From Candidatus Ozemobacteraceae bacterium (GTDB lineage: Bacteria; Muiribacteriota; Ozemobacteria; Ozemobacterales; Ozemobacteraceae), in the NCBI GenBank assembly GCA_036567845.1, contig DATCTT010000027.1:11-64010 (forward strand): 64,000 bases of DNA, read 5' to 3'. A program made the position numbers and the translations under genes. Numbering within the stretch: the first letter of the stretch is position 1; every line of letters starts with the position of its first letter. Below the pieces are notes generated by a model that worked only from the letters and a program-made list of their open reading frames with translations, had not been told where the DNA came from and searched no databases. This document shows positions 10,676 to 56,650 of this stretch, piece by piece.

Positions 10676-10793
10676 TGATATCTAACCTCCGGCGTCCGCC
10701 GCGGGTGAAAAAAGATGTTCCCCGCTGTAACTAACAAAAATCGTGCCACAGGCAAAAGTGTCTCTGGAAGACCGCTGTCACCGGTCGAACACG

Positions 10794-10805
10794 TGCGACG
10801 TCGCA
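10794..10805. promoter_or_regulatory. Perfect 12-bp palindrome TGCGACGTCGCA in the clpB/aclB divergent intergenic region (candidate regulator site)
   Basis: The sequence equals its own reverse complement and sits in the 336-bp divergent region. No CIRCE or clear sigma32 motif was seen. Confidence 0.25.
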
Positions 10806-10931
10806 TCAGACAGCCTCCCGCGCGACGTTTCCGTCGCATCCAGATGCCCCCAAGTGCCGGGCGAAACACGATCGCCCGCCTCTCCTCGGCTCCCGCCTGT
10901 TTTCTCGCCAGCCGGCTCGCATATCGCCGCT

Positions 10932-10962
10932 TGACGGTTGAGGGAAGGTACTATATACCCAT
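10932..10962 (+). promoter_or_regulatory. Sigma70-like promoter candidate for aclB
   Basis: cTTGACG, a 15-16 nt spacer, then TATATA; about 45 nt upstream of the aclB ATG. Confidence 0.3.
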
Positions 10963-11011
10963 AGAACATGCGGCCCCAGAGAGCCGTATGACAGGGAAAG
11001 GAGCAGGATTC

Positions 11012-12286: not shown

Positions 12287-12311
12287 CTGCGGAAAGGAAC
12301 CAGAGAAGACC

Positions 12312-38191: not shown

Positions 38192-41100
38192 CTAAGCGGG
38201 CGGCTTTGCGCAAAGCGCGGCAAAGGCGCATGTGGAACAGGGTGCCTCGGCGGGGGGCTGCCAGGCGCGTTCGCCGCGGATCCGCGCCACGAGCTCCGTG
38301 GCTGACCGCTCGAAGGCCGGGAGGTCGGGATCGACGGGCTCGATGCGCACCGATGTCTCGGTCAGATAGGCCAGAGCCGCGGATGCGAAGGCGAGGGCGC
38401 CGCTCTTCCCGAACAGGCCCCGGCGGGCCGCAGCGAGATACAGAGCAAGCTGCCGGGCATAGACCGCGTGGGCCGCAGGTGAAAAAGCATGAGATTTATA
38501 ATCAATGATATATACTTCTCCGTCCCGTAGATCGATGCGGTCGGCAAACCCGCGCAGCAGGAACGGGCCATCCTGGTCTGACGTTCCTGTCACCTCGAGC
38601 CGGAGGTTCACCTCGGCCTCGAGATGTGCCGCATCTGTCGCCGCCAGGGGTGAGGCGAGATACGAGGCGAGCAGGGCTGCCGCGCGGTCCCTGCCCGCCG
38701 CCCCTTCCTCACCGTGAAGAGGGACCAGCCGGTCGAGCAGCCCGAACAGCCGGTCGCGTCGGACGTCGTCCGGGAGGGCGGACACGTTTCCCTCGTGGTA
38801 CAGGCGCAGGGTGCGATGAACGAGGTTGCCGACGGCCGGCCCGCGTCCGGACTCGGACGGACCCGCAAGGGGCGCGATATGCCGGCGCTGAAAAAAATAT
38901 CGCCGGGGACACTGCTCATACGCATCGAGATCCCCGAGCGAGTAGATCTCCTCACTCACTCCGCTTCCTGCCACCCGCCTGGGCCGGGACGCCTCCTCCC
39001 GGAGACGGAGAAAACGGCCGGTGAGAGCGGTGATCTGCGGGGTGAGATCGACTCCATCAGCCGGCTGGGACGGGAGAGGGGTGGCGGGGGCGGAGGAAGC
39101 CGTTCCTGCCGCAAGCCATCGCTCCGCGACAGTGGGCCACTCCGCGAGGGCGTCGACGGAGCCGAGGGTTTCATCCGCGCGAAGCATGCCGGCAAGCTCT
39201 CCGATGGGCTGGCCTGGTTTGTCGATATCCGTTTCCGAGCCGCTGATGACAAGAAGATCACGGGCGCGAGTGAGGGCGACATACAGCTTCCGGCGCTCTT
39301 CGGCGGAATTGGCGACCTGCTCCGCGTCGAAAACGGCCCGGATTTCGGCCTCCGGGCTGCCCTCACACTCTTTCCGATGGACCACGAGCCCCTGGTCGCG
39401 GGTCATGAACAGGCCCTGTTCGCGTTTGAACGTGCGCGTGTGGAGGTTCGGCAGAAAGACGACGGGGAACTCGAGCCCTTTCGATTTGTGAATGGTCAGG
39501 ATCTTGACGGCTTCGCCCTCCTCGAGACCGAGACCGGCCTCGTCCTCGTCGACCCCGGACTCGATCGTCCGGTCATGGTAGGCAAGGAAGTCGCGGAGGG
39601 TCGTGAAGACACCGTTGGCTTCGAACGCCCGGACGATACCCACGAATTTCGCGAGGTTGTTCTCGAGGCGGCGCCGGCGCAGATCATCCGTCTGGGCGGC
39701 CGCGTGCTCGAGGAACCCGGCCTGCTCGAGCACGGCATGGACGAGGTCGAGAATCCCCAGCGTGCCGCTCATTCCCTGAAGGCGGACGAACAGCCGGCGG
39801 AACGAGCGGACACGCTCCGGCAGGACGCTCTCGGGAAGGGCCAGCAGGTGGGCGAGGAGGCTGACGTGTTCTTCCCGCCTGTCATGGAACAGCGCCGACA
39901 GCTCCGCATCCGAAAGGCCATACTGGGGCCCGGTCAGGATCGTCGCCAGCGAGAGATCGTCGGTCGGCCGCACGAGAAGCCGGAGAAACGCGACAACGGC
40001 AGCGATCTCATGGCGCGCGTAGAATCCGAGGCCGCCGGCCATCACATACGGGATCCCGCGGACCAGCAGGGCGTCTTCGTAGGCGCGGGGAAGACGGTTG
40101 ACGGAGTGGACGATGATCGCGAAGTCTCCATACGCTGCCGGCCGTTTCCCCTGCCGGGTCTCGATGGCCAGGCCGCCGCGGACAAGAGTCTGGATGAGGT
40201 CGGCGATGGTTTCGGCCTCTTCGGAACTGCCGGGCGCCGCGGCAAGAAGACAGGCAATCGGTCTTGGTCTGGTCGAAGCGCCACGATCGGCTGTCTGAGG
40301 CGGTGGCGGATTTTCAATATTGCGGGAAATATATCTGTCGGCCAGAGTCAGGATTTCCTGAACGGACCGATAGTTCTGGTTCAGCCAGATCGTGCGGGTT
40401 GCGGGAAACGCATGGAAGGTGCGGATGTCGGCACCCTGGAACCGATAGATGCTCTGTTTCTCGTCGCCGACAACGGTGATGTGGCCTTCGCGGCCGTCGA
40501 CGAACGTCCGGATGATGCCGAACTGCTCCTGGTTGTTGTCCTGAAACTCGTCGATCAGGAAAACCCGTTGTGCCGGATCGCTGCCCGCGGCACGCTGGTC
40601 GGCGATCAGGGCCGAGCTGCGGAGGAGGATCTCGTCGAAATCGAGCAGGTGTCGTTCCCCGAGCTTCTGGAGATACCGGCTGTAGAATCGGAAAAACCAG
40701 ATCTGGACCCTCTTTTCGAGGGGAGAGGGCGGTGTACCGCGCCGGGCGAATCGCTCGTCGGTGAAACGCTGGAACCCGCCGGGTGAGAGGAGAAACCGCC
40801 GGACGTGGCCAAGGAGGCCTGGAAACAGGCTTGTGACGTGATGAGCCTGGTCGGGGCCGAACGCCTCGGGGCCCTCGAGCAGTGCATCGGCATGGGCCGC
40901 CCGGAACTCCTCGAGAAGATCGGCGAGAAGCAGGCGGCGGCCGCCTTCGGTCAGAACCGTGTCACCCCGGTCGATGCCGGCGCCGAACGGGTCGCGGCGA
41001 AGCAGATCGCCGAGGAAGGCGTGGAAGGTCGAGACCTGGAGATTGCGAAGCACTGAAGCGGTGAGGCCGCGTGCCGGATGCGCGAGCCGCTCCTTCATCT

Positions 41101-41302
41101 CCGCGGCGGCCTTACGGGTGTAGGTGATCGCGACCAGCTCCATCGGCAGGATTCCCTGGCGGAGCAGGGCCACGATGCGTCGTGTCAGGACCTCGGTCTT
41201 GCCAGAGCCCGCTCCGGCAGCGATTTTCAGAAATCCGGCAGACGGCTCGCGAACGGCATCCTGTTGCTCGGGGTTCAGCCCGGTAAGGAGGTCAGTCAGC
41301 AT
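38192..41302 (-). CDS. UvrD-like helicase plus C-terminal RecB-type PD-(D/E)xK nuclease with a 4-Cys (Fe-S) cluster; second subunit of an AdnAB/AddAB-type helicase-nuclease
   Basis: Walker A AGAGSGKT. Nuclease IIDYKSHAF. Cys ligands YEQCPRRYFF ... CSTCAFAALC. 1036 aa, overlapping the upstream paralog by 11 nt. Confidence 0.85.
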   Translation of the reverse strand: MLTDLLTGLNPEQQDAVREPSAGFLKIAAGAGSGKTEVLTRRIVALLRQGILPMELVAITYTRKAAAEMKERLAHPARGLTASVLRNLQVSTFHAFLGDLLRRDPFGAGIDRGDTVLTEGGRRLLLADLLEEFRAAHADALLEGPEAFGPDQAHHVTSLFPGLLGHVRRFLLSPGGFQRFTDERFARRGTPPSPLEKRVQIWFFRFYSRYLQKLGERHLLDFDEILLRSSALIADQRAAGSDPAQRVFLIDEFQDNNQEQFGIIRTFVDGREGHITVVGDEKQSIYRFQGADIRTFHAFPATRTIWLNQNYRSVQEILTLADRYISRNIENPPPPQTADRGASTRPRPIACLLAAAPGSSEEAETIADLIQTLVRGGLAIETRQGKRPAAYGDFAIIVHSVNRLPRAYEDALLVRGIPYVMAGGLGFYARHEIAAVVAFLRLLVRPTDDLSLATILTGPQYGLSDAELSALFHDRREEHVSLLAHLLALPESVLPERVRSFRRLFVRLQGMSGTLGILDLVHAVLEQAGFLEHAAAQTDDLRRRRLENNLAKFVGIVRAFEANGVFTTLRDFLAYHDRTIESGVDEDEAGLGLEEGEAVKILTIHKSKGLEFPVVFLPNLHTRTFKREQGLFMTRDQGLVVHRKECEGSPEAEIRAVFDAEQVANSAEERRKLYVALTRARDLLVISGSETDIDKPGQPIGELAGMLRADETLGSVDALAEWPTVAERWLAAGTASSAPATPLPSQPADGVDLTPQITALTGRFLRLREEASRPRRVAGSGVSEEIYSLGDLDAYEQCPRRYFFQRRHIAPLAGPSESGRGPAVGNLVHRTLRLYHEGNVSALPDDVRRDRLFGLLDRLVPLHGEEGAAGRDRAAALLASYLASPLAATDAAHLEAEVNLRLEVTGTSDQDGPFLLRGFADRIDLRDGEVYIIDYKSHAFSPAAHAVYARQLALYLAAARRGLFGKSGALAFASAALAYLTETSVRIEPVDPDLPAFERSATELVARIRGERAWQPPAEAPCSTCAFAALCAKPPA

Positions 41303-44300
41303 CGTCGGAAGCCTCCTGCGTGGAATCGGGTGTCGGGAGGCGGAGCTGGTCGAGCCGTTCCTGGCAGAATGGTTGGAATTCGCAGTGCTTTGTCGGTGAA
41401 CGGTTGATGCAGGACATTGCCGAGGCCGCCGGAGAAGGATGGCAGTCGAACACCCGTTCTGAAACGATCCTTTCCATGAGCCGCTCCAGGGTGTCGCTGA
41501 AGGTGGCGAACTGGTCGGGTGTGACCTGGACGGCCCATTCGGGGCCTGCGCCCAGTCCGAGCATCGCCGATTTCAAAAAACCCGGCTGGAAGCCATTGTA
41601 TTTCCTTTTATATAGATCATCCTTCGGATACACGGTGCCGGCACACACCCGTTCATGGCCCAGCTGGCGCGCGGCAAGAAGATAGAAGGGAAGTTGGATT
41701 TCGGATGGCGGGCCGGATTCCGGGAATGCCTCGCGCAGCATCGAGGCGGCCGACTTTGCCGAACCCGTCTTGTAGTCGATGATCCAGATCGTGCTGTCCG
41801 CATCCTCGAGCCACCGGTCGATCCGCCCTTTGCAGGGATATCCGCGGAACTCGAACCGGAACCCCGCCTCGACGCCGATGGTGCCGGTCGCCGGAATCTG
41901 GCCGTTGACGTAGACGGCTTCGCGATACCGGTTCAGAATTTCCCGGGCCTGGCCGTCATACTGCTTCCGCTGGAGCACGGGGAGCTGGCCGAGAAGTGGC
42001 ACACCATGGGACCTCCAGAGGGCTTCCAACTCATCAAATCTTGGCGATCGGCCGCCCGCGAAGGTTCCAGCCGGGTCATGCAGAGCCTGGAGGCACGCGT
42101 GGATCGCGTTTCCGAAGATGAGCGCGGGTTGCCGCTCGATCCGGTCGTCGCGCAGGCGGAGGACGTGACGGTAGAAGAACCGTCGGGGACAGTCGATGAA
42201 ATCGCGAAGCGCCTGGGCAGAAAACCGGAATCCCGCGGGCAGTTCGGCCGGACAGGGGGGGGCAATTCCGAATCGGCGTGGTTTCAGAAGATCCCTGTCT
42301 GCTTCATCCGTGTCGGAGATTGCGTGGACGGCTTCAGACAGGCCCTGCAGGCCGGACTCCAGGCTCAGGCGCTCCTCCGGGGACAACCGGGCCAGGTGGG
42401 TGCGGAGTTCGCCGATCGTCAGGATTCGCTGTTCATGCCAGTCACGGTGGGGGTGAAGACCGAGTTCGTCCAGGAACGGCGCCGGCAGGGCGGGGTCGGT
42501 TCCGATGCGGCGGGGCATCGTGAGGATCAGCCCTTCTTCGGCCCGCGTCAGGGCAACATACAGCAACCGGCGTTCCTCTTCGAGATGGTCGGCGTGATCG
42601 GCGGGGTAGGGGTTGAAGAAGCGGATCTCCCTGTCACTTGCGTCGATCGCTTTCTGCACCGCGGCCAGGCCGGCCGAGCCGATCAGGAGGTTCTCGCGGA
42701 GGCGGACGGGGAACTGGTCCTCGCAGAGTCCCGTCACGAACACCACGGGAAACTCGAGCCCTTTCGACTGGTGGACCGTCATCAGCCGCACCCCCGGCGC
42801 TGCCGGGGCCACGTCGGCTGCCGGCTCATCCTCCTGTTCGAGGGTCGATGCGTAATACGTGAGCCACTCATCGAAGCTCGGCATCAGATCAGCGGCGACG
42901 GGGGGGCGGCCAAACTGTTTTTCCCGGACGTCGCAGAAATCGTCAATCATGTTCCGGAACCGCATGACATGCCGTGCTCCGGGAGACGCCGGGTCGGCGA
43001 CGAGATGCGGAACGGCGAGTAGAAGCCGGGCGAATAGGGTGACGAGCGGAAGGCCGATTCCGTCATGCAGGAGGCGCAGGGTCTCGCGGAACGCGATGAG
43101 CCGGGTGACTGTGTCCGGGGTGGGAGGGACGAAACCGTCGGGAAGCGGTTCGTCAGGCGGGCGGTCGAGCCAGGCGTCGAGTGCGGTCTCGAGAGCCGCC
43201 CCGGGGGGAAGGGCGGCGAGATACTGCTGGACCCAGATGGGGTCGAGGCCAAAAACGGGGGAGGCGAAGGCCCGCCGCAGAGGTTGCTCTCGGGCTTCCT
43301 CCGGACCTGCCGTCGCCTGGAGCAGCGAGGCGAGCGCCGTCACCTCTTCGGACCGAAAAAATTTCATATCACCGGCTATATCAAAAGGGATATGCATTGC
43401 CCGGAGAGCCTCAGACAACAGATCGATCTGGTAATTGTTCCGGACCAGGATCGCGATTTCGCCGGGGGTGAAGCACCGATGGGTCCCGTACGTGAGCAGT
43501 GAGGCGATGCGGCGGGCGATCATGCGCGCCTCGTCGAGCTCGTCACGGGCCTCGAGCAGCTCGACGAAGCCCTGACGGCTGCTGCGCGCCACAAGGCCGC
43601 CCGGGCTTCCGCCGGAAGGGGGACTTTTGGGGGCAAGCTCCTGCGACCAGTGCAGGTTGGAGGCCAGGGCGAGAATGTCGGCGGCGCTGCGGTAGTTGCC
43701 GCCGAGTGAAAACAGACGGGCTTTGAACTCGCGTCGGAAGGCGCTGCGCGAACCCATCATACCTGGATCCGCCCCGCGGAACCGGTAGATGCTCTGCAGT
43801 GGGTCGCCGATCACCGCGATGCGGGGGGGCGGCACCTCGTCCGGGCTTTTCAGCAGCCGGAGAAGGAGATACTGGGCCGGGTCGGTGTCCTGAAACTCGT
43901 CGACGAGGACGACCCGGAACCGGTCGCGATACCGGGCGGCCGTGTCGGGATCGCGGAGAGCCTGGATCGAGAACGAGATCAGATCGCGGAAATCGAGGTA
44001 GCCGGTCCGGACCCGCTCCTCCTCATACCGCCGGTACAGATGCAACAGCTCGTCGAGACGCTGCCTGGCCATGGAGGGCGGTGGATGGGCGGTGATGGCC
44101 TGTTGGAGCTGGTCGGGAGTCACGAGATTCGATTTGAGCAGCGAGATGAACGTGAGCACTTCGAGCTGGAAACCGCGTTTGGTGAGCACCCGGCCGAACA
44201 CCGGGAAGGTTTCCGGAGTCAGTCGTGCACAGATGCCCGCCATCAGCAGGGCTTCCTTGAAGCCCGTGAGCAGTCGGAAATCCGGCCTGATGCCAACCAG

Positions 44301-44603
44301 GTGATACCGCTCGCGAAGCAGGCGGGCACAGAACGAGTGGAACGTTGAGATCCAGCACTCGTCGTAGCTGTGGGGGTGGTATTCCATGACCCGCCCCCGG
44401 AGTTCGCGTGCGGCCTTTTCCGAGAAGGTCAGGGCAAGAATCTCGCGGAGCCTGGTGCCTTCAGAGAGCAGGCGGCCGATCAGCACTGCAATGGTCCGGG
44501 TCTTGCCGGTGCCGGGGCCGGCGACGATCATTGTGGGCCCCTTGAACCCGCGGATGATGGCCTTCTGTTCGTCGTTCAGTCGGTCGAAGTCTTCGGAGAG
44601 CAC
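41292..44603 (-). CDS. UvrD-like helicase plus C-terminal RecB-type nuclease with a 4-Cys cluster; first subunit of an AdnAB/AddAB-type helicase-nuclease
   Basis: Walker A AGPGTGKT, DEFQDTD (motif II). Nuclease IIDYKTGSAKS. Cys ligands FIDCPRRFFY ... CINRSPTKHCEFQPFC. 1103 aa. Confidence 0.85.
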   Translation of the reverse strand: MLSEDFDRLNDEQKAIIRGFKGPTMIVAGPGTGKTRTIAVLIGRLLSEGTRLREILALTFSEKAARELRGRVMEYHPHSYDECWISTFHSFCARLLRERYHLVGIRPDFRLLTGFKEALLMAGICARLTPETFPVFGRVLTKRGFQLEVLTFISLLKSNLVTPDQLQQAITAHPPPSMARQRLDELLHLYRRYEEERVRTGYLDFRDLISFSIQALRDPDTAARYRDRFRVVLVDEFQDTDPAQYLLLRLLKSPDEVPPPRIAVIGDPLQSIYRFRGADPGMMGSRSAFRREFKARLFSLGGNYRSAADILALASNLHWSQELAPKSPPSGGSPGGLVARSSRQGFVELLEARDELDEARMIARRIASLLTYGTHRCFTPGEIAILVRNNYQIDLLSEALRAMHIPFDIAGDMKFFRSEEVTALASLLQATAGPEEAREQPLRRAFASPVFGLDPIWVQQYLAALPPGAALETALDAWLDRPPDEPLPDGFVPPTPDTVTRLIAFRETLRLLHDGIGLPLVTLFARLLLAVPHLVADPASPGARHVMRFRNMIDDFCDVREKQFGRPPVAADLMPSFDEWLTYYASTLEQEDEPAADVAPAAPGVRLMTVHQSKGLEFPVVFVTGLCEDQFPVRLRENLLIGSAGLAAVQKAIDASDREIRFFNPYPADHADHLEEERRLLYVALTRAEEGLILTMPRRIGTDPALPAPFLDELGLHPHRDWHEQRILTIGELRTHLARLSPEERLSLESGLQGLSEAVHAISDTDEADRDLLKPRRFGIAPPCPAELPAGFRFSAQALRDFIDCPRRFFYRHVLRLRDDRIERQPALIFGNAIHACLQALHDPAGTFAGGRSPRFDELEALWRSHGVPLLGQLPVLQRKQYDGQAREILNRYREAVYVNGQIPATGTIGVEAGFRFEFRGYPCKGRIDRWLEDADSTIWIIDYKTGSAKSAASMLREAFPESGPPSEIQLPFYLLAARQLGHERVCAGTVYPKDDLYKRKYNGFQPGFLKSAMLGLGAGPEWAVQVTPDQFATFSDTLERLMERIVSERVFDCHPSPAASAMSCINRSPTKHCEFQPFCQERLDQLRLPTPDSTQEASDDAD

Positions 44604-44616
44604 GGGAAGCGGCCTT

Positions 44617-44940
44617 TCAGGGGGTTCGGGGATAGACGAGATCGAACTGGGGGGAGCCGGTCACCGCCCAGAGAATCACGAAATGGTGGATGACATCTGA
44701 GAGGGCCAGTGCCCCGCCCAGAACTGCGAGGTGCCGCTTCCAGACGGGATCTCTCACGAAGGCCGACACGAGCAGGATCAACAGGCCGATGAGGCCGTGA
44801 TGGATGCGGTAGCCGAAGGTGAGCCGGCCGACGCTCGCAGCCGTGTCCCGGGCCGCCTCGAGACCGAAGCCGAACCGCAGGGCGGCCGTCACGGCCTCGA
44901 TTGCCGCGGCTAGAAGGAAAATCGGTTTCCAGGAGCTCAA
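44617..44940 (-). CDS. Small hydrophobic membrane protein (about 3 TM helices) upstream of the helicase-nuclease pair
   Basis: PIFLLAAAIEAVTAAL, HGLIGLLILLVSAF, LAVLGGALALSDVIHHFVILWAV. It overlaps the VWA gene stop by 4 nt. Confidence 0.4.
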   Translation of the reverse strand: MSSWKPIFLLAAAIEAVTAALRFGFGLEAARDTAASVGRLTFGYRIHHGLIGLLILLVSAFVRDPVWKRHLAVLGGALALSDVIHHFVILWAVTGSPQFDLVYPRTP

Positions 44941-46562
44941 TTGTCGCTGTCCGTGTCGGGAAGATCGGGCGTTCCGGGAAGATCCGTTCCGGCGTCCGCC
45001 GACCCTTCCCCGGATGTTGGCACTTGATACTCATGACTCAGGCTTTTTTCCAGCCCTTCGAGCATCTGATTCGTCCCGGCGGCATTCTCGTCGGCAGCCT
45101 GCTGCTGATCCTCCTGCATCCGGCGTTTCGAGGCGTTCAGCTCGTCGATGTTCCGGTTCACGCCGTCGATGTGGGCGTCATGGCGCTGCTGGTTCTGATC
45201 GTGCAGCTCGCGCATCTCGCGATTGAGCTGATCGGTTCGGGCGTTCTGGTCGCGTTTGAAATCCTGCCGCCATTGCTGATGAGCGTCATGAGAGGCTTTC
45301 AGGGTGGCGTTTAATTCCGCGATATGGGCTTTTTCCTGTTCCGATGCTCCGGGACGGGGCTGGATGGGTTTGTATTCCTGCCACACGGGCATCGCCTCCG
45401 TCGCGATATCGGTCCAGGTGGCAAGCTGATTCCGGTCCACATGGGCGATATCCGGCGATGTGCCCGTGTCGGGGGCCTCGACGCGGCCGAGCCGGACGTC
45501 GTGGCGGATGGTCCTGGTTCCCAGGCCCGTGGCTGCGGATGCGGCATCCCCTTCCCGGATGGCGATGCCAGGGATGCCCCGCCCCGGCTTGTCCGATGCG
45601 CCGGGCTGGCGTTCGACCCGGACCGGATCGAGGGGGGCGACGTAGGCGCCCGTGCCCTGGTCTTTGCGGCCTTGGTGCTCGCTGACCACCGTCAGCTCGC
45701 GGCGCGAGCCGTCCCGCTCGGGGGCGGGTGTTGTATAGCTTAGTTTATATCTTCGCTCGAGCATCATTCGGGAGCTGATCTTCTGGAAAATGCCGGCCAG
45801 CTGTTCGGCCGACGGGGCCCGCAGCAAAGCTCCTTTGGTCGTGCGGGCGAGCTGCTCGAGGAAACTTTCGTCAATGCTTGTACCGAGGGCCACGCAGATG
45901 ACGCGGATGCCGTTCTTGCTGGCGTGGGCGATCACCTCATCGGCTTTCTTCGTCGAAAAGCCGGGTTTGCCCTGCGGACTTTCGTCGCGACCATCCGTGA
46001 GCAGCACGATGGTCTTGCGGTCATCGGTGCCGGCAGCCGAGCGCAGCTGCTCGCAGGCCTGATACAGGGCGTCGAATAGGGCCGTGCCTCCCCATGGGCG
46101 CATTTTCGCGATGCCGCCGAGCAGGGGTTCCTGTTCGCGCGTGAACTCAGTCACGAGATCGACGTCGCTTGCGAAGGTGATCAGGGAAATGCGCGCCGGC
46201 ATGTTCATCCCTTTCACGAACATCGCCGCCGACTCCTTCACCGTCGTGACCACAGGTTCCATGCTCGAGGAGCGGTCGAGAAGAAGGGCAATGAACGGCT
46301 CCCGGCGGACGAGATCGATGGTGAAACTCGTGATCGGCGTTTCGCGTTCGTGCAGGGTGAAGGCATCATGGAGGAGTTCTGTGGCATCCGGGGTGAACAC
46401 CCGCATCATCACCCGGATCTTCGGGTAATCGATGGGTGACACGGTTTCGATCACCGAGGAAAATCCTGGATCGGCCGCGTGGGCCGGCGATCGGCCCGTC
46501 AGGGCGAACGTGAGCAGGAGCAGGACCACCAGCCATACATGGCCGGGACGACGGGTGCGCAT
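44937..46562 (-). CDS. Secreted von Willebrand factor A (VWA) domain protein with a C-terminal coiled-coil/Gln-rich tail
   Basis: Signal peptide ...LTFALTGRSPAHA. MIDAS motif LLLDRSSSM, VLLTDGRD. C-terminal QQWRQDFKRDQNARTDQLNREMRELHDQNQQRHD. Confidence 0.75.
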   Translation of the reverse strand: MRTRRPGHVWLVVLLLLTFALTGRSPAHAADPGFSSVIETVSPIDYPKIRVMMRVFTPDATELLHDAFTLHERETPITSFTIDLVRREPFIALLLDRSSSMEPVVTTVKESAAMFVKGMNMPARISLITFASDVDLVTEFTREQEPLLGGIAKMRPWGGTALFDALYQACEQLRSAAGTDDRKTIVLLTDGRDESPQGKPGFSTKKADEVIAHASKNGIRVICVALGTSIDESFLEQLARTTKGALLRAPSAEQLAGIFQKISSRMMLERRYKLSYTTPAPERDGSRRELTVVSEHQGRKDQGTGAYVAPLDPVRVERQPGASDKPGRGIPGIAIREGDAASAATGLGTRTIRHDVRLGRVEAPDTGTSPDIAHVDRNQLATWTDIATEAMPVWQEYKPIQPRPGASEQEKAHIAELNATLKASHDAHQQWRQDFKRDQNARTDQLNREMRELHDQNQQRHDAHIDGVNRNIDELNASKRRMQEDQQQAADENAAGTNQMLEGLEKSLSHEYQVPTSGEGSADAGTDLPGTPDLPDTDSDN

Positions 46563-46696
46563 ACGGGTTCCCTCCCTCTTGACCGGGATATTCTATCACA
46601 AGGGCAGCGGTGCTTGACTTGAAGCCGTCCGGTCGGGCACACTTTGCACAAGCACGGGCTATGCCCGTCGGGATACTGCCGCATCAGGAGGCGAAC

Positions 46697-47101
46697 ATGA
46701 AATTCATCGGGGCCGACACGCACAAGTGCGTGGGAGCGAAGAGCTGCGAGAAGACCTGCGCCAGGACGTTTTTCAAGACCGAGGATGTGGCGTATTCGGC
46801 GATCCGTGTCACGCGCACGAAAGACGGGTGGGACATCAACGTCTGCAACCAGTGCGGCAAATGCATCGAGATCTGCCCGGAGAAGGCCATTTCGCGGAAC
46901 AGGGCCGGCACCGTCGTGATCGACAAGTCCCTGTGCGTCGGCTGCTTCATGTGCGTCGGCTTTTGCCCGACGCTGTCGATGCGCGTGGCGCCCGGCGGTC
47001 GTGAGCCGTTCAAGTGCGTTTCCTGCGGCGCCTGTGCCAAGGCTTGCCGAAGCTGTGCCCTGACCCTGAGTGAGCGCGATCACGCGCAGCTGCCGTCTTG
47101 A
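46697..47101 (+). CDS. 4Fe-4S ferredoxin-type protein (probable electron-transfer partner of AOR)
   Basis: RBS CAGGAGG. CNQCGKCIEICP and CVGCFMCVGFCP (two CxxCxxCxxxCP motifs), plus extra Cys pairs. 134 aa. Confidence 0.75.
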   Translation: MKFIGADTHKCVGAKSCEKTCARTFFKTEDVAYSAIRVTRTKDGWDINVCNQCGKCIEICPEKAISRNRAGTVVIDKSLCVGCFMCVGFCPTLSMRVAPGGREPFKCVSCGACAKACRSCALTLSERDHAQLPS

Positions 47102-47126
47102 CGGATCGAGGAGAGGAGTGAATAAT

Positions 47127-49322
47127 ATGATAGACTATACTAAACGGACCTCGTATCTGGGTGATCTGGAAAAGCAGCGAGGCGCTCACCGGCTCGTCTT
47201 CGAGGGGAGCTTCAAGCCGGGACTGCCTGAGCGCGGCTACAACAACCGCACGCTGTTCATCAACCTCTCGACGAAGACCATCACCGAAAAGCCGGTGACG
47301 GAACAGATGAAGGAGATCTTCATCGGCGGCCGCGGCTTCGGTCTCTGGTATCTCTGGAATGCTGTCACCCCAAAGACCCGCTGGAACGACCCCGAGAACG
47401 AGATCGTCATCAGCCCCGGGCCCCTCGGCGGCAACACGCAGTATCCGGGTTCCGGCAAGTCGCTCGTCGTCTCCCTGTCGCCACTCACCGACATTCCGAT
47501 CGACAGCAACGTCGGCGGGCATTTCGGGCCCCTGCTGAAGTTCAGCGGCTTTGATGCCCTCGAGATCCAGGGAAAGGCGGATGCTGACGTCGTCATCTTC
47601 ATCGACGGGCAGAAGGGGGTCATCCGGGTCGAGGAGGCACCGCTCGAAAGCGTCGACAGCCATATCGCCGCGGATATATTCACACACATGTATGCCGAGA
47701 ACGAACTGGACCGGCGGAACATCTCGGTCATCGCTTCGGGCAAGGGCGCCGATCATGCCCTGATGGGCTGTCTGAACTTCTCCTGGTATGACCACCGGCG
47801 CGGCGTTGCGCGGCTCAAACAGGCCGGTCGGGGCGGCATCGGAACGGTGTTCCGGAACAAGAAGGTCAAGGCTGTTGTCGTGCGCGGCCCGGCCGTCAAG
47901 GGCGACATGAACCGTCCCGCCGATCTGGACCGGGTGCGCAACACCGGCATCCGGTTGCATCGCGAGATCCACGATAACGATGACAAGCAGTGCCACATGC
48001 GGACACAGGGCACCGCCCACCTCGTCGAGGTGATGAGTGACTACGATCTGCTGCCGGTCTGCAACTTCCAGTATGGTTCCCACGACGATGTAAAAAATAT
48101 CGCATCGTATAAATGGGGCGAACGGTTCACCCAGGGAATTCCCGACGGCTGCTGGCATGGCTGCTCGATGGGCTGCTCGAAGGGCGCCGACGGCCATATC
48201 GTGAAGACGGGGCCCTACAAGGGCCACTCCGTCACGGTCGACGGTCCGGAATACGAGACGGCTGCCGGTCTCGGGTCGAACTGCGGCATTTTCGACCGCG
48301 ACTGGATCCTCGAGGGCAACTTCTACTGCGACACCTACGGCATCGACACCATCTCGTTCGGCACGAGCTGCAGCTTCGTGATGGAGTGCTGGCAGCGTGG
48401 CATCCTGAATGCCGAGCGCACCGGCGGGGTCGAGCTGACGTGGGGCAATGGCGAGGCGCAGATGGAGCTGCTGCACCAGATGGCTCGCAACGAGGGGTTC
48501 GGGGCGATCGTCGGCCAGGGTGTCGCCCGCATGAAAAAACTGTTCATCGAAAAAGGTTGGGGGGATCCGAAACTGATCGAGGATATTGGCATGGAGGCGA
48601 AGGGCCTCGAATACTCCCAGTATCTCTCGAAGGAGTCCCTGGCGCAGCAGGGCGGTTATGCCCTGACCAACAAAGGGCCGCAGCACGATGAGGCCTGGCT
48701 GATCTTCATGGACATGGTCAACAACCAGCTGCCTACATTCGAGGACAAGGCAGAGGCCCTGCATTACTTCCCGATGTTCCGCACCTGGTTCGGTCTGAAC
48801 GGCCTGTGCAAACTGCCCTGGAACGACGTCGAACCGGATGACAACCGCAAGGTCAATAGTCCGATGGAGGCGGCGAAAGTGCCGGCCCATCTGCAGAACT
48901 ACTGCGATCTCTTCTCCGGCATCACCGGCCGCGAGATGAACCGCGACGAGCTGGTCTTCATGTCCGAGCGGGTCTACAACTTCCAGCGCGTTTTCAACCT
49001 GCGCATGGGAAAGGGGCTGCGCAAGTTCGACCAGGCGCCCTACCGCTCGACCGGCCCTGTCACCCGCGAGGAGTATGAATCGCGCGCCGAGCGGTATGAC
49101 AAGCAGCTTCGGGAACAAATCGGCATCGACCCGGCCGGAAAATCCGTCGACGAAAAGATCGCTCTCCACCGGAGATGGCGCGAAGATCGGTATCAGAAGC
49201 TCTGTGATGCCGTCTACAAGCGCCGCGGCTGGACAAAGGATGCCGTGCCGACCCTCGAGACCCTGAAAAAACTCGGCATCGATTTCCCCGACGTCGTAGA
49301 GGTCGTCAAAAAGTATCTCTGA
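47127..49322 (+). CDS. Aldehyde:ferredoxin oxidoreductase family (tungsten/molybdopterin) enzyme
   Basis: RBS GAGGAGAGGAG. N-terminal AOR_N IFIGGRGFGLWYLW. Length 731 aa, with a C-terminal extension beyond typical AORs of about 600 aa. Confidence 0.85.
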   Translation: MIDYTKRTSYLGDLEKQRGAHRLVFEGSFKPGLPERGYNNRTLFINLSTKTITEKPVTEQMKEIFIGGRGFGLWYLWNAVTPKTRWNDPENEIVISPGPLGGNTQYPGSGKSLVVSLSPLTDIPIDSNVGGHFGPLLKFSGFDALEIQGKADADVVIFIDGQKGVIRVEEAPLESVDSHIAADIFTHMYAENELDRRNISVIASGKGADHALMGCLNFSWYDHRRGVARLKQAGRGGIGTVFRNKKVKAVVVRGPAVKGDMNRPADLDRVRNTGIRLHREIHDNDDKQCHMRTQGTAHLVEVMSDYDLLPVCNFQYGSHDDVKNIASYKWGERFTQGIPDGCWHGCSMGCSKGADGHIVKTGPYKGHSVTVDGPEYETAAGLGSNCGIFDRDWILEGNFYCDTYGIDTISFGTSCSFVMECWQRGILNAERTGGVELTWGNGEAQMELLHQMARNEGFGAIVGQGVARMKKLFIEKGWGDPKLIEDIGMEAKGLEYSQYLSKESLAQQGGYALTNKGPQHDEAWLIFMDMVNNQLPTFEDKAEALHYFPMFRTWFGLNGLCKLPWNDVEPDDNRKVNSPMEAAKVPAHLQNYCDLFSGITGREMNRDELVFMSERVYNFQRVFNLRMGKGLRKFDQAPYRSTGPVTREEYESRAERYDKQLREQIGIDPAGKSVDEKIALHRRWREDRYQKLCDAVYKRRGWTKDAVPTLETLKKLGIDFPDVVEVVKKYL

Positions 49323-49379
49323 CAATAGTTCATTCCTGCTTCCGTTTCCCTTCGGCTTTTCGAGCCGATCAGCCCGTTT

Positions 49380-49877
49380 ATGACGGCCAAACGGGCTTTC
49401 AGTGCAATTTTCGAGGGGAGCTGTCCGAAAGTCTCCGTTTCGGGGAGGAAATGCGTGCGAACGACGCAGGCGGATGTGGAGCTGCTGATGAAGCGGCTGG
49501 TGGAGCCGGTGCGGAAGATGCTTCGGGAAAGCGGAGGATTTCTTCCGTTTGGGGCGTATCTCGACACCGCCCGCCGTGTCCGGAAGTTCCAGGCCGAGGT
49601 CGATGACGCGTGGGACCAGGATGAGCTCGCGGGGTTTTTCGAGGAAAAATTGCAGGGATATGCAGCCGCGAAGAAAGCGGTCGCGACCGCCATCGTCCGC
49701 GACGTGCGTGCAGCGCCGCCCGGAAAGCGCAAGGCGGAAGACTGCGCCGCGTTTGCGCTCGATCACGTCGACGGCTACTCGGTCATCGTCTTTCTGCCGT
49801 ATGTGATCGACGAAGGCGGCAAGGTGTTGTTCGGAGAGCTGTTCGCGATCGACGGCGACAGCAGGATCTTTTCATGA
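49380..49877 (+). CDS. Hypothetical protein (165 aa)
   Basis: ORF only; no motif recognised. It lies between AOR and the ThiF-like gene. Confidence 0.35.
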   Translation: MTAKRAFSAIFEGSCPKVSVSGRKCVRTTQADVELLMKRLVEPVRKMLRESGGFLPFGAYLDTARRVRKFQAEVDDAWDQDELAGFFEEKLQGYAAAKKAVATAIVRDVRAAPPGKRKAEDCAAFALDHVDGYSVIVFLPYVIDEGGKVLFGELFAIDGDSRIFS

Positions 49878-49997: not shown

Positions 49998-50873
49998 GTG
50001 AGGATTGATGCAAAGGAAAGGCATTGCGTGAAGTGCAGAATCAATGAGCGGGATGCGGAGATCGGGGGCGGGACCAGCCTTGGAAAATTGGCTGAGGCGC
50101 ACTGCCCGGGGGCGGATCTGTTCATCCTGAACGGGTGCCCCGCGGCGCCGGATACGATTCCAGGGGAAGGCGACGCGATCGTGTTCATCCGGCGCGGCGT
50201 GAAGCCGGCCCCGGAGGAGCTGGATGCTCTCCTTGCGGCTCGTCACACCCCGGGCGTACATGAAAAGCTGAAACGATCCTCGGTCGGCATCGCCGGCTGT
50301 GGCGGGCTGGGCTCGACCGTTGCCCTGGCCCTCGCCCGCGTCGGGATTGGCCGACTTGTTTTGGCCGATCACGACGTGGTCGAGCCGAGCAATCTAAATA
50401 GGCAGCAGTATTATATAGATCAGATTGGCATGGCGAAGGTCGAGGCGCTCCGGACGACGATCGCCCGAGTAAACCCGGCCATACAGGTCACGGTCTGGGG
50501 GGAACGGCTGGTGCAGCCGACGGTTGCTTCGCTCTTTGCCGGTGTAGACGTGCTGGTTGAGGCGCTCGACCAGGCCGACCAGAAGGCGATGCTGGTCGAG
50601 GCGGCGATGAAGGCCTTCCCCACCAAACCTCTCGTGTTGGGCTCCGGGATGGCGGGGTGGGGAGGGAACGAGCGCCTGCGCACCCGGATTTCCGGCACCA
50701 TGACGGTGTGCGGTGACGAGACGGCCGAGGCCGTGCCCGGCCGGGGCCTGATGGCTCCACGCGTCGGCATTGTTGCACACATGCAGGCCAACCGCGTCAT
50801 GGAACTGCTTCTCGGGCCAGATGAGGGTATCGGCCCCGAACTCGTAACAGGGAGATTCGACGAGACATGCTGA
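49998..50873 (+). CDS. ThiF/MoeB-family E1-like adenylyltransferase with an N-terminal fused ThiS/MoaD-like beta-grasp domain
   Basis: GIAGCGGLGSTVALALARVG (Rossmann GxGxxG), NLNRQ. The N-terminal 75 aa are LFILNGCP...GDAIVFIRRG, ThiS-like but with no terminal GG. Confidence 0.75.
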   Translation: MRIDAKERHCVKCRINERDAEIGGGTSLGKLAEAHCPGADLFILNGCPAAPDTIPGEGDAIVFIRRGVKPAPEELDALLAARHTPGVHEKLKRSSVGIAGCGGLGSTVALALARVGIGRLVLADHDVVEPSNLNRQQYYIDQIGMAKVEALRTTIARVNPAIQVTVWGERLVQPTVASLFAGVDVLVEALDQADQKAMLVEAAMKAFPTKPLVLGSGMAGWGGNERLRTRISGTMTVCGDETAEAVPGRGLMAPRVGIVAHMQANRVMELLLGPDEGIGPELVTGRFDETC

Positions 50874-54493: not shown

Positions 54494-56371
54494 TTACAGA
54501 TCCATTTCCCAGGACACGGCCAGGCGCCGGCCGGGCTCGCCATATCCGTAGATCCTCTGGGAACGCGTGTTGGCGATGTTCAGCAGGGCCAGCCGGAACG
54601 TGCCACCGTGGAACCGGCTCAGATAGCCGATATCCGTGCGATCCGTCGGTGAGACGGAACGGGTGTTTCCGGCATCGTCCCAGCTCGCCCCCCACCGGGC
54701 ATACCGCGCAAACACCTCGCCGTTTCCGGCAGGATGACGCAGAGTCAGGGCTCCGGCATGCCCCGGTACGCGGGGCAGGGTGCAGCCTGAGCTCAGGATC
54801 CGGGCCCGGGGCGTGCGGGAATACTCGAACTCCATGCGGCAGCGGCCGCTGGACATCCGCACGTCAAGTTCGTGGCCGGTGATTTCGGCGGTTTCCAGGT
54901 TCGCCGCCTTGATCCCCCAGGCATAGGCCGGGTCCGTCGTGGCGACGGTTCCGATGAGATTGTCGGCGCGTGTCCGGTAGCTGCGCACCTCGATGATGCC
55001 ATCGGTACCTGCCCGCTGGGTAAGCGCGAGCGAGAGAGTGCGCCCTGTCTCGGGGGCCAGGTGCTCGTCGCCGTAGTTCGGGTAGAACCGTTCATTGAGC
55101 GACGGACGCCGGAAGGAAGTTCCCCAGGCGGCTTCCAGACTGCGTTTGCCCTGCTCCCGGGAAAGGGCGAGCTTGCCCGTCGCGGCGGTGTCGCCGGGGT
55201 TTGTATAACGATCGATACGTCCGATCGACCGGAGCTTCCAGCCGGCTGCCGGGCTCCAGGAAACCCCGCCCCGAAGCGCATCATCTGCCTCATTCCGCTC
55301 GAGGATGCCGTCGTTCGATGCGTCCGTTTCCTGATGTGAAACGCCCAGGTCGATCTCGCCGCGCGACAGATACCAGAACCGGTCGATCGCCTGCTGGTGC
55401 GTGAGAGAGTGCATGTCATACCCGTTCCAGGGATCTGTCGGATCATCCCCGGCAAGAACCGCGTCACGCCGGCCGGCCGTGTACTGCCACTCCCCGTCCG
55501 GAAGGGGCCGCGCGATGTGCAGATTCATCGTCGATTCCGACCGGTGCTGGATGAAGTCGGGATCGTCGACAGGGGCTGAAGTGATCGGGGAAAACGTGTC
55601 CAGGGCCGTGTCCGACGAACGCCAGCCGAGAAGGAATCGGACGGCAGTGCCGTTGGTCGATCGGCTCTGGATGCCGATCTGCAGGCGCTCCTGCTCGAAC
55701 GGATCCGTTTCGGCATTGCCCTGCCGTCCGTCGGCAGCCGACCAGCCCTGAGTCCGGAAGGTCATCCCGGAAACCCCCAGAGTGGCATCCCCAAGCGCCA
55801 ATGCCGCGTTCAGCTCGCGGCCGTTTCCCCCAACTCCGTCTGAAAACAGGCGAATACTCGAAGTGGCCGGAATGGCGGTTCGGAGATGGAGGACCCCCCC
55901 GATGGCGTTGCTGCCCCACCAGGATGCGCCTGAACCGCGGTACACCTCGACGGAATCGAGGAGCCCCGGGTCGATGTCGCCCAGGTCGGGATTGCCCGTG
56001 AAGGGGTCGTTCACCGGCATGCCGTCACGCAGAACGAGCACGCGCGCGCCGGTGAAGCCTCCCAGCATCGGACTGGCGAGCCGCCCCGGCCCGCCCTGGG
56101 GCGGAGTCACGAGCACGCCGCCCCCCAGAGCCTCGGGGCCGGTCGTCGGTAGAAATCTGCCGATATCCTCCGCCCCGGCACGGGAGACGGCATCGCCGAC
56201 GAGCTCGCACGGCGGCTTCCACGCCGGTGCCGTCACCGTGACCGTTGGAAGCTGCACGACCGGCTGGGAAGCTGTTACGGCGGGCAGACCGGTGGTCGGG
56301 TGGACCAGGAATGCCAACATCGGCAGCAGAAAACGGGAAAAGCGGGAAATGAAACGATGGAAAACGAGCAT
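54494..56371 (-). CDS. TonB-dependent receptor-like outer-membrane protein (plug domain clear; start uncertain; atypical C-terminal residue)
   Basis: Plug motifs RVLVLRDGMPVNDPFTG and EVYRGSGASWWGSNAIGGVLHL. Candidate starts at 56476, 56425 and 56371 (GAGGTG RBS before 56371, then a signal-like MLVFHRFISRFSRFLLPMLAFLV). It ends ...SWEMDL rather than an aromatic residue. Confidence 0.65.
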   Translation of the reverse strand: MLVFHRFISRFSRFLLPMLAFLVHPTTGLPAVTASQPVVQLPTVTVTAPAWKPPCELVGDAVSRAGAEDIGRFLPTTGPEALGGGVLVTPPQGGPGRLASPMLGGFTGARVLVLRDGMPVNDPFTGNPDLGDIDPGLLDSVEVYRGSGASWWGSNAIGGVLHLRTAIPATSSIRLFSDGVGGNGRELNAALALGDATLGVSGMTFRTQGWSAADGRQGNAETDPFEQERLQIGIQSRSTNGTAVRFLLGWRSSDTALDTFSPITSAPVDDPDFIQHRSESTMNLHIARPLPDGEWQYTAGRRDAVLAGDDPTDPWNGYDMHSLTHQQAIDRFWYLSRGEIDLGVSHQETDASNDGILERNEADDALRGGVSWSPAAGWKLRSIGRIDRYTNPGDTAATGKLALSREQGKRSLEAAWGTSFRRPSLNERFYPNYGDEHLAPETGRTLSLALTQRAGTDGIIEVRSYRTRADNLIGTVATTDPAYAWGIKAANLETAEITGHELDVRMSSGRCRMEFEYSRTPRARILSSGCTLPRVPGHAGALTLRHPAGNGEVFARYARWGASWDDAGNTRSVSPTDRTDIGYLSRFHGGTFRLALLNIANTRSQRIYGYGEPGRRLAVSWEMDL

Positions 56372-56487
56372 GGGGCCGCGCCACCTCTGAAAAAAATACC
56401 GCGCTCCCCGGGCCGGAGACGCCATGCGTCGTCTGTTCGGCACGATCTCCCGATCCGCGAGGAGTCGCGTGCTCATCCGACAGGTAT

Positions 56488-56650
56488 TCCGGCTCCCGGA
56501 TCATCCTCCCGCCGGCCCTTCCCACCCTTGCGGGTAGTGGCTTGCCGGCGTTTGTCCCCGATTACGGCGACGGGCTCGCGCAGGTGTTTCACCTGCTTCC
56601 CTGCTGGCCTGCGGTCAGGCCATGGCGATGAGGCCCTCTGGATACCACAA
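56488..56650 (-). ncRNA. Candidate cobalamin (B12) riboswitch in the leader of the TonB-dependent receptor gene
   Basis: The minus-strand leader reads ...GGGAAgcAGGTGAAAcACCTGcgcgagcccgtcgccGTAAtcgg...gcaaGCCACTacccgcaagGGTGGGAAGGccggcgggaggatgatCCGGGAGCCGGaa. This matches the conserved GGGAA/GGTGAAA/GTAA core and the CCACT...GGGAAG plus B12-box-like elements of E. coli btuB. Confidence 0.5.

Follow-up and report, generated by a model that had tools for sequence, protein, structure and literature searches.

Introduction

RecBCD, AddAB and AdnAB differ in the motors and nucleases that they bring together and in the place of the iron-sulfur (Fe-S) cluster. RecBCD has two motors and one nuclease, and the RecB nuclease carries no Fe-S cluster; AddAB has one motor and two nucleases, with the cluster in AddB; AdnAB has one proven motor, a motor-like subunit and two nucleases, with the cluster in AdnA. 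Here we analyse two adjoining helicase-nuclease genes, which we call HN1 and HN2, in a 64,000-nucleotide stretch of DNA (contig DATCTT010000027.1 of assembly GCA_036567845.1; this whole stretch is referred to as the window). The window is a piece of ordinary chromosome from a metagenome-assembled genome (MAG) of Candidatus Ozemobacteraceae (Riflebacteria). The pair is neither a plain AdnAB nor a plain AddAB: it is a variant that keeps the helicase motifs in HN1 and the cysteines in HN2.

The functional properties of the described heterodimers set the frame for this comparison. AdnA binds nucleotide and has retained Walker A, DEFQD and motif III, but nothing indicates that it hydrolyses ATP during resection; the Fe-S cluster of AdnAB is present in AdnA alone, and Trp325 of AdnB is the ratchet pawl (PMC13000450). 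The AddA nuclease lacks an Fe-S cluster, which sits in AddB (PMC3378879). A survey from 2019 reported AdnAB in no group other than Actinobacteria (PMC6452273). Another group, the UvrD-Cas4-like fusions, forms a large family whose members are often stand-alone or are found in type III restriction-modification (R-M) or Dcm/Vsr contexts (Hudaiberdiev et al., 2017, PMC5704561). A first-pass annotation of the window had described HN1 and HN2 as a tandem pair in the arrangement of AdnAB, in an apparent operon with a secreted VWA protein and a small membrane protein.

Results

The four open reading frames (ORFs) of this proposed operon were found on the minus strand exactly where they had been placed (Table 1). 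HN1 has Pfam matches to UvrD-helicase (1.8e-63), UvrD_C, PDDEXK_1 (2.6e-33) and ADDB_N (5.7e-8), and HN2 to UvrD-helicase (3e-49), UvrD_C and PDDEXK_1 (2.9e-29). The two proteins are 28% identical across the motor, so that the description as a tandem of paralogous superfamily 1 (SF1) helicases with RecB-family nucleases, of the AddAB/AdnAB class, holds. Each of them is a UvrD-like SF1 helicase fused in one chain to a Cas4-like four-cysteine PD-(D/E)xK nuclease, as in the UvrD-Cas4 fusions of the pfam12705 branch, and weak Cas4 matches were returned by NCBIfam. Genes of this type are currently annotated merely as "ATP-dependent DNA helicase".

The helicase motifs I, Ia, Ib, II, III, IV, V and VI are all kept in both HN1 and HN2; a degeneration of motifs III-VI in one subunit, which according to the first-pass annotation would have made this a plain AdnAB locus, was not found. 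In 51-member alignments of each family the Walker A residues G31, G33, K34 and T35 of HN1 and G30, G32, G34, K35 and T36 of HN2 are invariant. Among 77 full-length Riflebacteria homologs of HN1, Walker A and DEFQD are each present in 76, motif V in 75 and motif III in 74. The 79 Riflebacteria homologs of HN2 are equally uniform, each motor motif being found in 77-79 of them (Walker A in 78), and HN2 is predicted from these motifs to have an active-type SF1A motor, as AddA does. The pawl position in motif III is Phe in both Riflebacteria subunits (78/78 for HN2), like in AddA and RecB; it is Trp in AdnB and in the second subunit of a distant clade represented by locus L006. The presence of an intact Walker A in both subunits had been called unusual, which it is not: AdnA also keeps its Walker A (PMC13000450), and so does the AdnA ortholog of locus L078. 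The latter retains motifs I, II, III and V and has lost motif IV, whereas HN1 keeps motif IV as NYRS. The helicase-like domain of AddB is inactivated, and the Nitrospira AddB (L076) lacks motifs I-V, all of which HN1 has.

In phmmer searches of the PDB both HN1 and HN2 match PcrA/UvrD far better than AdnB (HN1-PcrA, 2e-59), and AdnA is not among their matches at E <= 1e-10; blastp against AdnAB gave about 100-120 bits across the motor domains. Because the best PDB sequence matches of HN1 are PcrA and UvrD, with AdnA unlisted, HN1 is, judged by sequence, closer to a working UvrD/PcrA than AdnA is.

The catalytic nuclease residues of HN1 and HN2 (Table 1) are invariant alignment columns, with IIDYK beginning at residue 941 in HN1 and at residue 932 in HN2. 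Both nucleases are flanked by conserved sets of four cysteines, as had been claimed, although the reported pattern of one cysteine upstream and three downstream applies exactly to HN2 only. In HN2 these are C798 (in CPRRYF) upstream and C1022, C1025 and C1031 (CxxCx5C) downstream, all four invariant in the 51-sequence alignment; counted as motifs they are present in 75-76 of the 79 Riflebacteria homologs (CxxCx5C in 76/79) and in 36-38 of 39 distant ones. HN1 has C805 (in CPRRFF) just upstream of the nuclease span and four cysteines downstream, C1054, C1065, C1074 and C1080, of which C1054 (in FDC) is an extra cysteine conserved in Riflebacteria HN1. In the 51-sequence alignment C1065 is conserved to at least 90%, and the columns of C805, C1074 and C1080 do not vary. 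The predicted ligands of HN1 are C805, C1065, C1074 and C1080, the last three spaced C-x8-C-x5-C. This spacing is expanded compared to the canonical CxxCx5C of AddB, AdnA, Cas4 and Dna2. All 77 Riflebacteria homologs of HN1 keep CPxx followed by C-xN-C-x5-C with N=4-11, and the first subunit of the Dormibacteria-like clade has C-x6-C-x5-C.

Nuclease profiles built from 6-7 orthologs were compared with PDB chains, among which the AdnA nuclease is the best match of any helicase-nuclease chain for both profiles. The alignment of the HN2 profile with the M. smegmatis AdnA nuclease runs from end to end and takes in DCPLRW and CANCPVRSSC, whereas with AdnB the catalytic core alone aligns. The match of the HN1 profile to the AdnA Fe-S nuclease spans the N-terminal Cys and the catalytic core; this profile also matches Cas4 (4r5q_A, 1.9e-4), slightly ahead of AdnA. 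A single-sequence phmmer search of the PDB with the HN2 nuclease domain returned noise only. The alignments suggest that the HN2 nuclease is of the Cas4/AddB/AdnA "iron-staple" type with four predicted Cys ligands. The second subunits of the described systems are different in this respect: the AddA nuclease has no Fe-S cluster, while in HN2 four conserved Cys match the AdnA ligands in the alignment, and AdnB has no such ligands, its orthologs in L077 and L078 carrying Trp in motif III and no C-terminal Cys.

The comparison panel consisted of the AddAB/AdnAB loci that were incidentally returned by a contig search with HN1. This search was dominated by the generic VDEFQDTD and returned mostly UvrD, PcrA and AddA loci together with one close relative, L007. 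AddAB-like pairs from five lineages in the panel, namely Marinamargulisbacteria (L035), an Actinomycetota MAG (L040), Sumerlaeota (L050), the archaeon Sysuiplasma (L052) and Coriobacteriia (L057), also have a CxxCx5-7C tail in the AddA-position subunit, which thus ends like HN2; the upstream Cys (CP motif) is present in this subunit in 4/5 of these pairs and is not clear in L057. Their first subunits lack helicase motifs and are AddB-like, unlike HN1. Within the panel, helicase motifs in the first subunit together with Cys sets in both subunits were seen solely in Riflebacteria, the L006 clade and Velthaea (L011). The first subunit of L006 has the complete helicase motif set; in L011 motifs II, III and V were seen in the first subunit, and the motif scan found Walker A in neither subunit. 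Cysteines in both subunits, regarded as unusual in the first-pass annotation, are absent from the characterised AddAB and AdnAB and present in AddAB-like pairs of six or more other lineages. We found no published description of dual-subunit Cys sets, with or without first-subunit motor motifs, in the literature searched, and the panel suggests that dual Fe-S variants of AddAB may be widespread but undescribed.

The position of each subunit was assigned with full-length hidden Markov models (HMMs) of HN1 and HN2, built from 51-sequence alignments of each family. The AdnA orthologs of L077 and L078 score 290 bits on the HN1 profile vs 187 bits on the HN2 profile; the orthologs of these two loci had been verified against M. 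smegmatis AdnA (5e-105) and AdnB (1.5e-148). All AddB sequences prefer the HN1 profile and all AddA sequences prefer the HN2 profile. Among the NCBIfam models HN1 has a weak addB_Gpos match (41.8 vs a cut-off of 903.7), and HN2 scores higher than HN1 on the AddA models: addA_alphas gave 2.5e-67 and 228.2 vs a cut-off of 860.75, and addA_Gpos gave 3.9e-66 and 223.7 vs 707.65. Single-chain AlphaFold2 models of good predicted quality by the local distance difference test (pLDDT 86.9 for HN1 and 86.8 for HN2) were superposed on PDB chains with Foldseek. The whole-chain fits of the HN1 model were best to AddB (3u44_B), with a TMq of 0.61 and a root-mean-square deviation (rmsd) of 8.8, and to AdnA (6ppj_A), with a TMt of 0.67 and an rmsd of 7.7; its fit to AddA was poor (rmsd 32). 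The best PDB match of the HN2 model was AddA (4cej_A; E 2.8e-44, TMq 0.56), followed by AdnB (TMt 0.66-0.68, rmsd ~9), while the rmsd against AdnA or AddB was ~33. Since family matches, profile scores and model superpositions agree, HN1 is placed by sequence and predicted fold in the AddB/AdnA position and HN2 in the AddA/AdnB position.

The resemblance to the M. smegmatis AdnAB (PDB 6PPJ, 6PPR, 6PPU, 7SJR, 9NP6) lies in the adjoining co-oriented genes for proteins of ~1050-1100 aa in the order adnA-adnB, in the N-terminal UvrD-like motor and C-terminal RecB-family nuclease of each subunit, and in a first subunit with Walker A, DEFQD, motif III and a 4-Cys nuclease, cluster binding being predicted for HN1. 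With AddAB of the B. subtilis type (PDB 3U44, 3U4Q, 4CEH, 4CEI, 4CEJ) the pair shares the AddB-like gene followed by the AddA-like one and, by prediction, the dual-nuclease heterodimer class and an "iron staple" nuclease in the first subunit. The AdnAB arrangement proposed earlier is consequently right in class and gene order. It fails at the Cys set of HN2, at the motif III Phe in place of the Trp325 pawl of AdnB, at motif IV of HN1 and at the spacing of the HN1 cysteines (C-x(4-11)-C-x5-C vs CxxCx5C in AdnA); the sequences are also distant, and the host belongs to Riflebacteria, not Actinobacteria. Alignment with AdnA, AdnB, AddA and AddB, proposed as a check in the first-pass annotation, showed that HN1 and HN2 keep the motor and nuclease motifs and that they differ from AdnAB at motif IV, the pawl and the cysteines. 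A RecBCD-type complex does not fit either: the ORF list and Pfam revealed no recC-like or recD-like ORF adjoining HN1/HN2, and the NCBIfam recB score is 153.8-188.6 vs a cut-off of 696.

HN2 is 100% identical to a protein (P0164) of a Candidatus Ozemobacteraceae MAG, and the closest relative of HN1, 90% identical, also comes from Candidatus Ozemobacteraceae. All named homologs of HN1 in the range of 43-90% identity belong to Riflebacteria, Rifleibacteriota or Ozemobacteraceae; the next clade, at ~30%, carries the labels Dormibacteraceae, Patescibacteria or "bacterium". The homologs of HN2 are likewise from Riflebacteria and then, at ~30%, from Dormibacteraeota and Limnocylindrales. The two families have the same taxonomic profile, their named ~30% members being mostly Dormibacteraeota/Dormibacteraceae, and a manual tally matched 21 entries between the two homolog lists by a shared assembly figure. 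Ten Riflebacteria loci were compared (the window, L001-L005, L007, L088, L089 and L090), and HN2 lies directly downstream of HN1 in 8/10 of them as well as in the distant pair L006. The latter is orthologous to HN1 and HN2 subunit by subunit (1171 bits on the HN1 profile, 1174 bits on the HN2 profile). A stop-start overlap of HN1 and HN2 was seen in 7/8 loci whose called coordinates were compared, L006 included.

In the window the HN1 and HN2 genes share 11 nt, and a GGAGG sequence precedes the HN2 ATG by 9 nt. A gap of 13 nt separates the small ORF from HN1; at its other end the small ORF overlaps the VWA gene by 4 nt (TTGA), and GGGAGGG precedes the ATG of the VWA gene. An aspartate/ornithine carbamoyltransferase (OTCase) gene follows HN2; it is also found 3' of HN2 in L001, L002, L089 and L090 and is thus a conserved downstream neighbor. 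The 100-nt gap between HN2 and this gene has no significant structure (fold z 0.45). The hairpin behind the OTCase gene is the only convincing terminator downstream of the VWA-to-OTCase run, and the hairpin scan found no terminator-like hairpin between the VWA gene and this point. Co-transcription of the whole run is therefore plausible from the sequence, with the OTCase possibly in the same transcript as HN2. A sigma-70 consensus scan found no promoter upstream of the VWA gene or within the cluster, although this consensus may not be the one used by Riflebacteria. A 918-aa minus-strand ORF (47010-49766) was tried as a fifth operon member and rejected, as it has no family match and shadows the Fer4 and AFOR genes of the plus strand; the VWA gene is hence the first of the cluster. 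The divergent Fer4-AFOR pair beside the helicase cluster recurs in L001 and L088.

Table 1. Features of the HN1/HN2 locus and of other parts of the window (positions in the window unless a locus is named).
Feature	Position	Strand	Details
Secreted VWA/MIDAS protein	44937-46562	-	541 aa; first gene of co-oriented cluster
Small three-transmembrane (3-TM) protein	44617-44940	-	107 aa; TTG start overlaps VWA stop
HN1 helicase-nuclease	41292-44603	-	1103 aa; GTG start; AddB/AdnA-position subunit
HN1 Walker A, GPGTGKT	44499-44519	-	residues 29-35
HN1 nuclease domain	41361-42227	-	E912, D929, D943-Y944-K945, Q970/Y974
HN1 Cys tail	41361-41500	-	residues ~1054-1080
HN2 helicase-nuclease	38192-41302	-	1036 aa; AddA/AdnB-position subunit
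HN2 Walker A, GAGSGKT	41195-41215	-	residues 30-36
HN2 nuclease domain	38210-38941	-	E895, D921, D934/K936, Q951/Y955
Aspartate/ornithine carbamoyltransferase (OTCase)	37111-38091	-	Pfam OTCace, OTCace_N; 100 nt downstream of HN2
Intrinsic-terminator-like hairpin	37063-37091	-	12-bp stem and U run; -28.4 kcal/mol, z -6.65
Divergent intergenic region VWA(-)/Fer4-AFOR(+)	46563-46696	.	134 nt; presumed promoter region
4Fe-4S ferredoxin (Fer4)	46697-47101	+	ATG at 46697; real gene opposite shadow ORF
Aldehyde:ferredoxin oxidoreductase (AFOR)	47070-49322	+	real gene opposite shadow ORF
ThiS-like/ThiF fusion	49998-50873	+	after AFOR
Small-protein homologs	L002:7651-8004, L088:8001-8336, L090:4651-4995, L087:7001-7396		
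ATP-citrate-lyase-type gene	10715-12286	+	Citrate_bind/Citrate_synth_N
ATP-citrate-lyase-type gene	12255-14156	+	CoA_binding/Ligase_CoA/Citrate_synt
Gingipain-like Peptidase_C25	31474-33675	+	with propeptide domain
TonB-dependent receptor	54494-56476		Plug and beta-barrel
Cobalamin riboswitch	56462-56644	-	Rfam RF00174, 76.4 bits

The properties ascribed to the two upstream proteins were borne out. The VWA protein (Pfam VWA, 4.4e-16) has a predicted signal peptide (AHA|A near residue 29), a MIDAS motif DRSSS at residues 96-100 and a polar tail (~420-510) rich in Q/E/N/D/K/R, and three hydrophobic segments were recognised in the small protein. No family of Pfam, NCBIfam or PADLOC takes in the small protein (in the case of Pfam even at E <= 10 with 18 members). 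Its own family comprises 306 representative clusters in 1.84 billion proteins and is known from Riflebacteria and Planctomycetota, some members being fused into 500-600-aa proteins. The invariant residues are E15, RFG, R45, HHG, SD, HHF and GSPQFD. Four His and acidic residues lie in or near the membrane, a pattern that looks like a metal-binding or catalytic site, as far as sequence can tell.

Discussion

We consider that HN1 and HN2 probably form a heterodimeric ATP-driven helicase-nuclease of the AddAB/AdnAB class, which would resect DNA double-strand breaks (DSBs) for RecA-dependent repair; we put the probability of this reading at about 0.75. By homology to AdnAB and AddAB (PMC13000450, PMC3321194) the heterodimer would bind a DSB end, with HN2 as the lead 3'-to-5' SF1A motor on the 3' strand. 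HN2 would feed this strand through the motor domain of HN1 to its own nuclease, where the strand would be cut, and HN1 would sit behind HN2 on the same strand. The Fe-S subdomain of HN1 would be located at the fork, and the HN1 nuclease would cut the displaced 5' strand. With its complete motif set HN1 may be no dead scaffold but another active motor with the polarity of HN2, and in HN2 the nuclease would be stapled by the second Cys set, as that of AddB is.

Several observations weigh against a heterodimer of this kind. The AdnB orthologs score ~215 bits on both profiles, which leaves the relationship of HN2 to AdnB ambiguous by score, and HN2 has Phe at the place of the AdnB pawl. The scores of the NCBIfam AddA and AddB equivalogs are far under their cut-offs. 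The C-x8-C spacing in HN1 is non-canonical and makes cluster binding by this subunit less certain. Additionally, HN1 has no adjoining HN2 in L088 (8357-11779) and L005 (8001-11618), where the next gene encodes a convergent glycosidase or YitT; HN1 might function by itself in these genomes, or the HN2 gene might lie at another place or have disappeared.

The lone HN1 genes lead to a different explanation, namely that HN1 and HN2 are not subunits of one machine but two independent helicase-nucleases of the UvrD-Cas4 type whose genes happen to be adjacent paralogs; enzymes of this type have been described as accessory to defence or repair pathways. One would argue that such fusions are a large and often stand-alone family (PMC5704561) and that HN1 and HN2 each look self-sufficient, with a full motor and a full nuclease. 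However, those fusions are single genes, and HN1 and HN2 are diverged paralogs whose overlapping order is kept across Riflebacteria and even in the 30%-identical pair of L006. Their families have parallel taxonomic profiles, and the asymmetry between them mirrors that of AddB/AddA and AdnA/AdnB both by profile and by whole-chain fold. Also the context is one of housekeeping genes, and Pfam and PADLOC revealed no defence genes near HN1/HN2, whether of type III R-M, Dcm/Vsr or another kind. Thus we regard two independent enzymes as unlikely.

It could also be that the heterodimer is more elaborate than AdnAB. In Riflebacteria the two subunits might constitute a dual-motor, dual-Fe-S machine with both motors hydrolysing ATP and moving in tandem on the 3' strand and with a cluster stapling each nuclease, tethered or gated at the membrane by the His-rich 3-TM protein. 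This would be a fourth architecture beside RecBCD, AddAB and AdnAB, if true, and we consider it rather unlikely. The small gene lies directly upstream of HN1 in 6/10 Riflebacteria loci, which span 47-73% HN1 identity; in L002, L088 and L090 it starts the cluster and its neighbor is a divergent Peptidase_M42 or HD_4 gene. It is missing, like the VWA gene, in L003, L004, L005 and L089, and in L089 a divergent Peptidase_M42 gene stands directly upstream of HN1. The Planctomycetota homologs adjoin PQQ-propeller, xanthine-dehydrogenase-family or MFS genes, with no helicase nearby. The small protein had been put forward as a partner of the helicases, and its position upstream of HN1 speaks for this idea, the unrelated contexts in Planctomycetota against it. 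It is a phylum-level syntenic neighbor, whose persistence may come from function or from inherited synteny.

An even wider grouping would join the VWA protein, the small protein, HN1 and HN2 in one four-gene module, for example for envelope-linked DNA processing or defence, with the membrane protein as anchor or regulator. The genes are co-oriented, their junctions are short (-4, +13 and -11 nt) and no terminator-like hairpin appears until past the OTCase gene, which agrees with the apparent operon of the first-pass annotation. The same four-gene order is shared with L001 and L007, both from Ozemobacteraceae and ~73% identical in HN1, and the small gene, as said, extends to further loci. Nevertheless, the VWA gene is confined to 3/10 Riflebacteria loci (the window, L001 and L007), which form the closest clade (HN1 identity of 73% or more), and it is missing from the other seven and from all distant pairs. 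The VWA protein is predicted to be exported, whereas the helicases are cytoplasmic. The small gene is itself missing in four of the ten loci and its Planctomycetota relatives have no helicase beside them, and PADLOC returned nothing for either protein beyond a noise-level match to JetC. A single module is for these reasons very unlikely. The co-transcription part of the operon proposal remains plausible, while a functional link of HN1/HN2 with the VWA protein, and with it the role of this protein as a partner of a DNA-repair motor, is not supported. Since the VWA protein is predicted to be exported and is missing from most relatives, we interpret its gene as most probably a lineage-specific insertion in front of an older block made of the small gene, HN1, HN2 and the OTCase gene; the VWA protein is most likely an unrelated, recently juxtaposed neighbor.

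The last alternative, a plain AdnAB or AddAB in which the HN1 motor is a passive conduit as in AdnA and the additional Cys of HN2 are incidental, can call on the nucleotide-binding motifs that AdnA retains (PMC13000450; L078 ortholog) and on a gene order and sizes that agree with adnA-adnB, but it is the most improbable of all, given that the four Cys of HN2 are invariant and align with the AdnA ligands where AdnB orthologs have no C-terminal Cys, that HN1 keeps the motif IV lost from the AdnA ortholog, that both proteins are closer to PcrA/UvrD than to AdnA/AdnB in PDB searches, that the AddA/AddB cut-offs of NCBIfam are missed widely, and that AdnAB is reported in Actinobacteria alone (PMC6452273).

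Under the preferred reading of a heterodimeric AddAB/AdnAB-class resection enzyme, Riflebacteria and a deep clade including Dormibacteraeota-like genomes have an AdnAB-like pair with no decay of either motor and with two nucleases of the predicted Fe-S type. Such a pair offers a test case for two questions: can the trailing motor in the AdnA/AddB position be active, and what does an Fe-S staple add to the nuclease of the 3' strand. It also suggests a way in which the specialised subunits AddB and AdnA may have evolved, starting from two helicase-nuclease paralogs that were both complete. Surveys for RecBCD, AddAB and AdnAB may score such genomes as devoid of an end-resection complex, the practical consequence of which is modest.

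The surroundings of the locus consist of housekeeping genes and show no sign of a mobile element or a defence island. The window also holds genes for PfkB, PurD (purD), a PLD-family protein, ClpB, AsnA, an amylase, a GT2-methyltransferase and a histidine kinase. PADLOC found solely generic UvrD/GajB and DRT-helicase matches in the window, and a reading of the locus as a defence system was rejected, these matches being merely generic. L001 and L002 also have the gingipain-like Peptidase_C25 gene, at a distance of a few kb from HN1/HN2, which extends the regional synteny in Riflebacteria. Two adjoining genes of the ATP-citrate-lyase type suggest the presence of this enzyme in the Ozemobacteraceae genome and possibly, to go by the sequence, a capability for the reductive tricarboxylic acid cycle. 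Finally, the cobalamin riboswitch lies directly upstream of the TonB-dependent receptor gene, an arrangement like that of BtuB.

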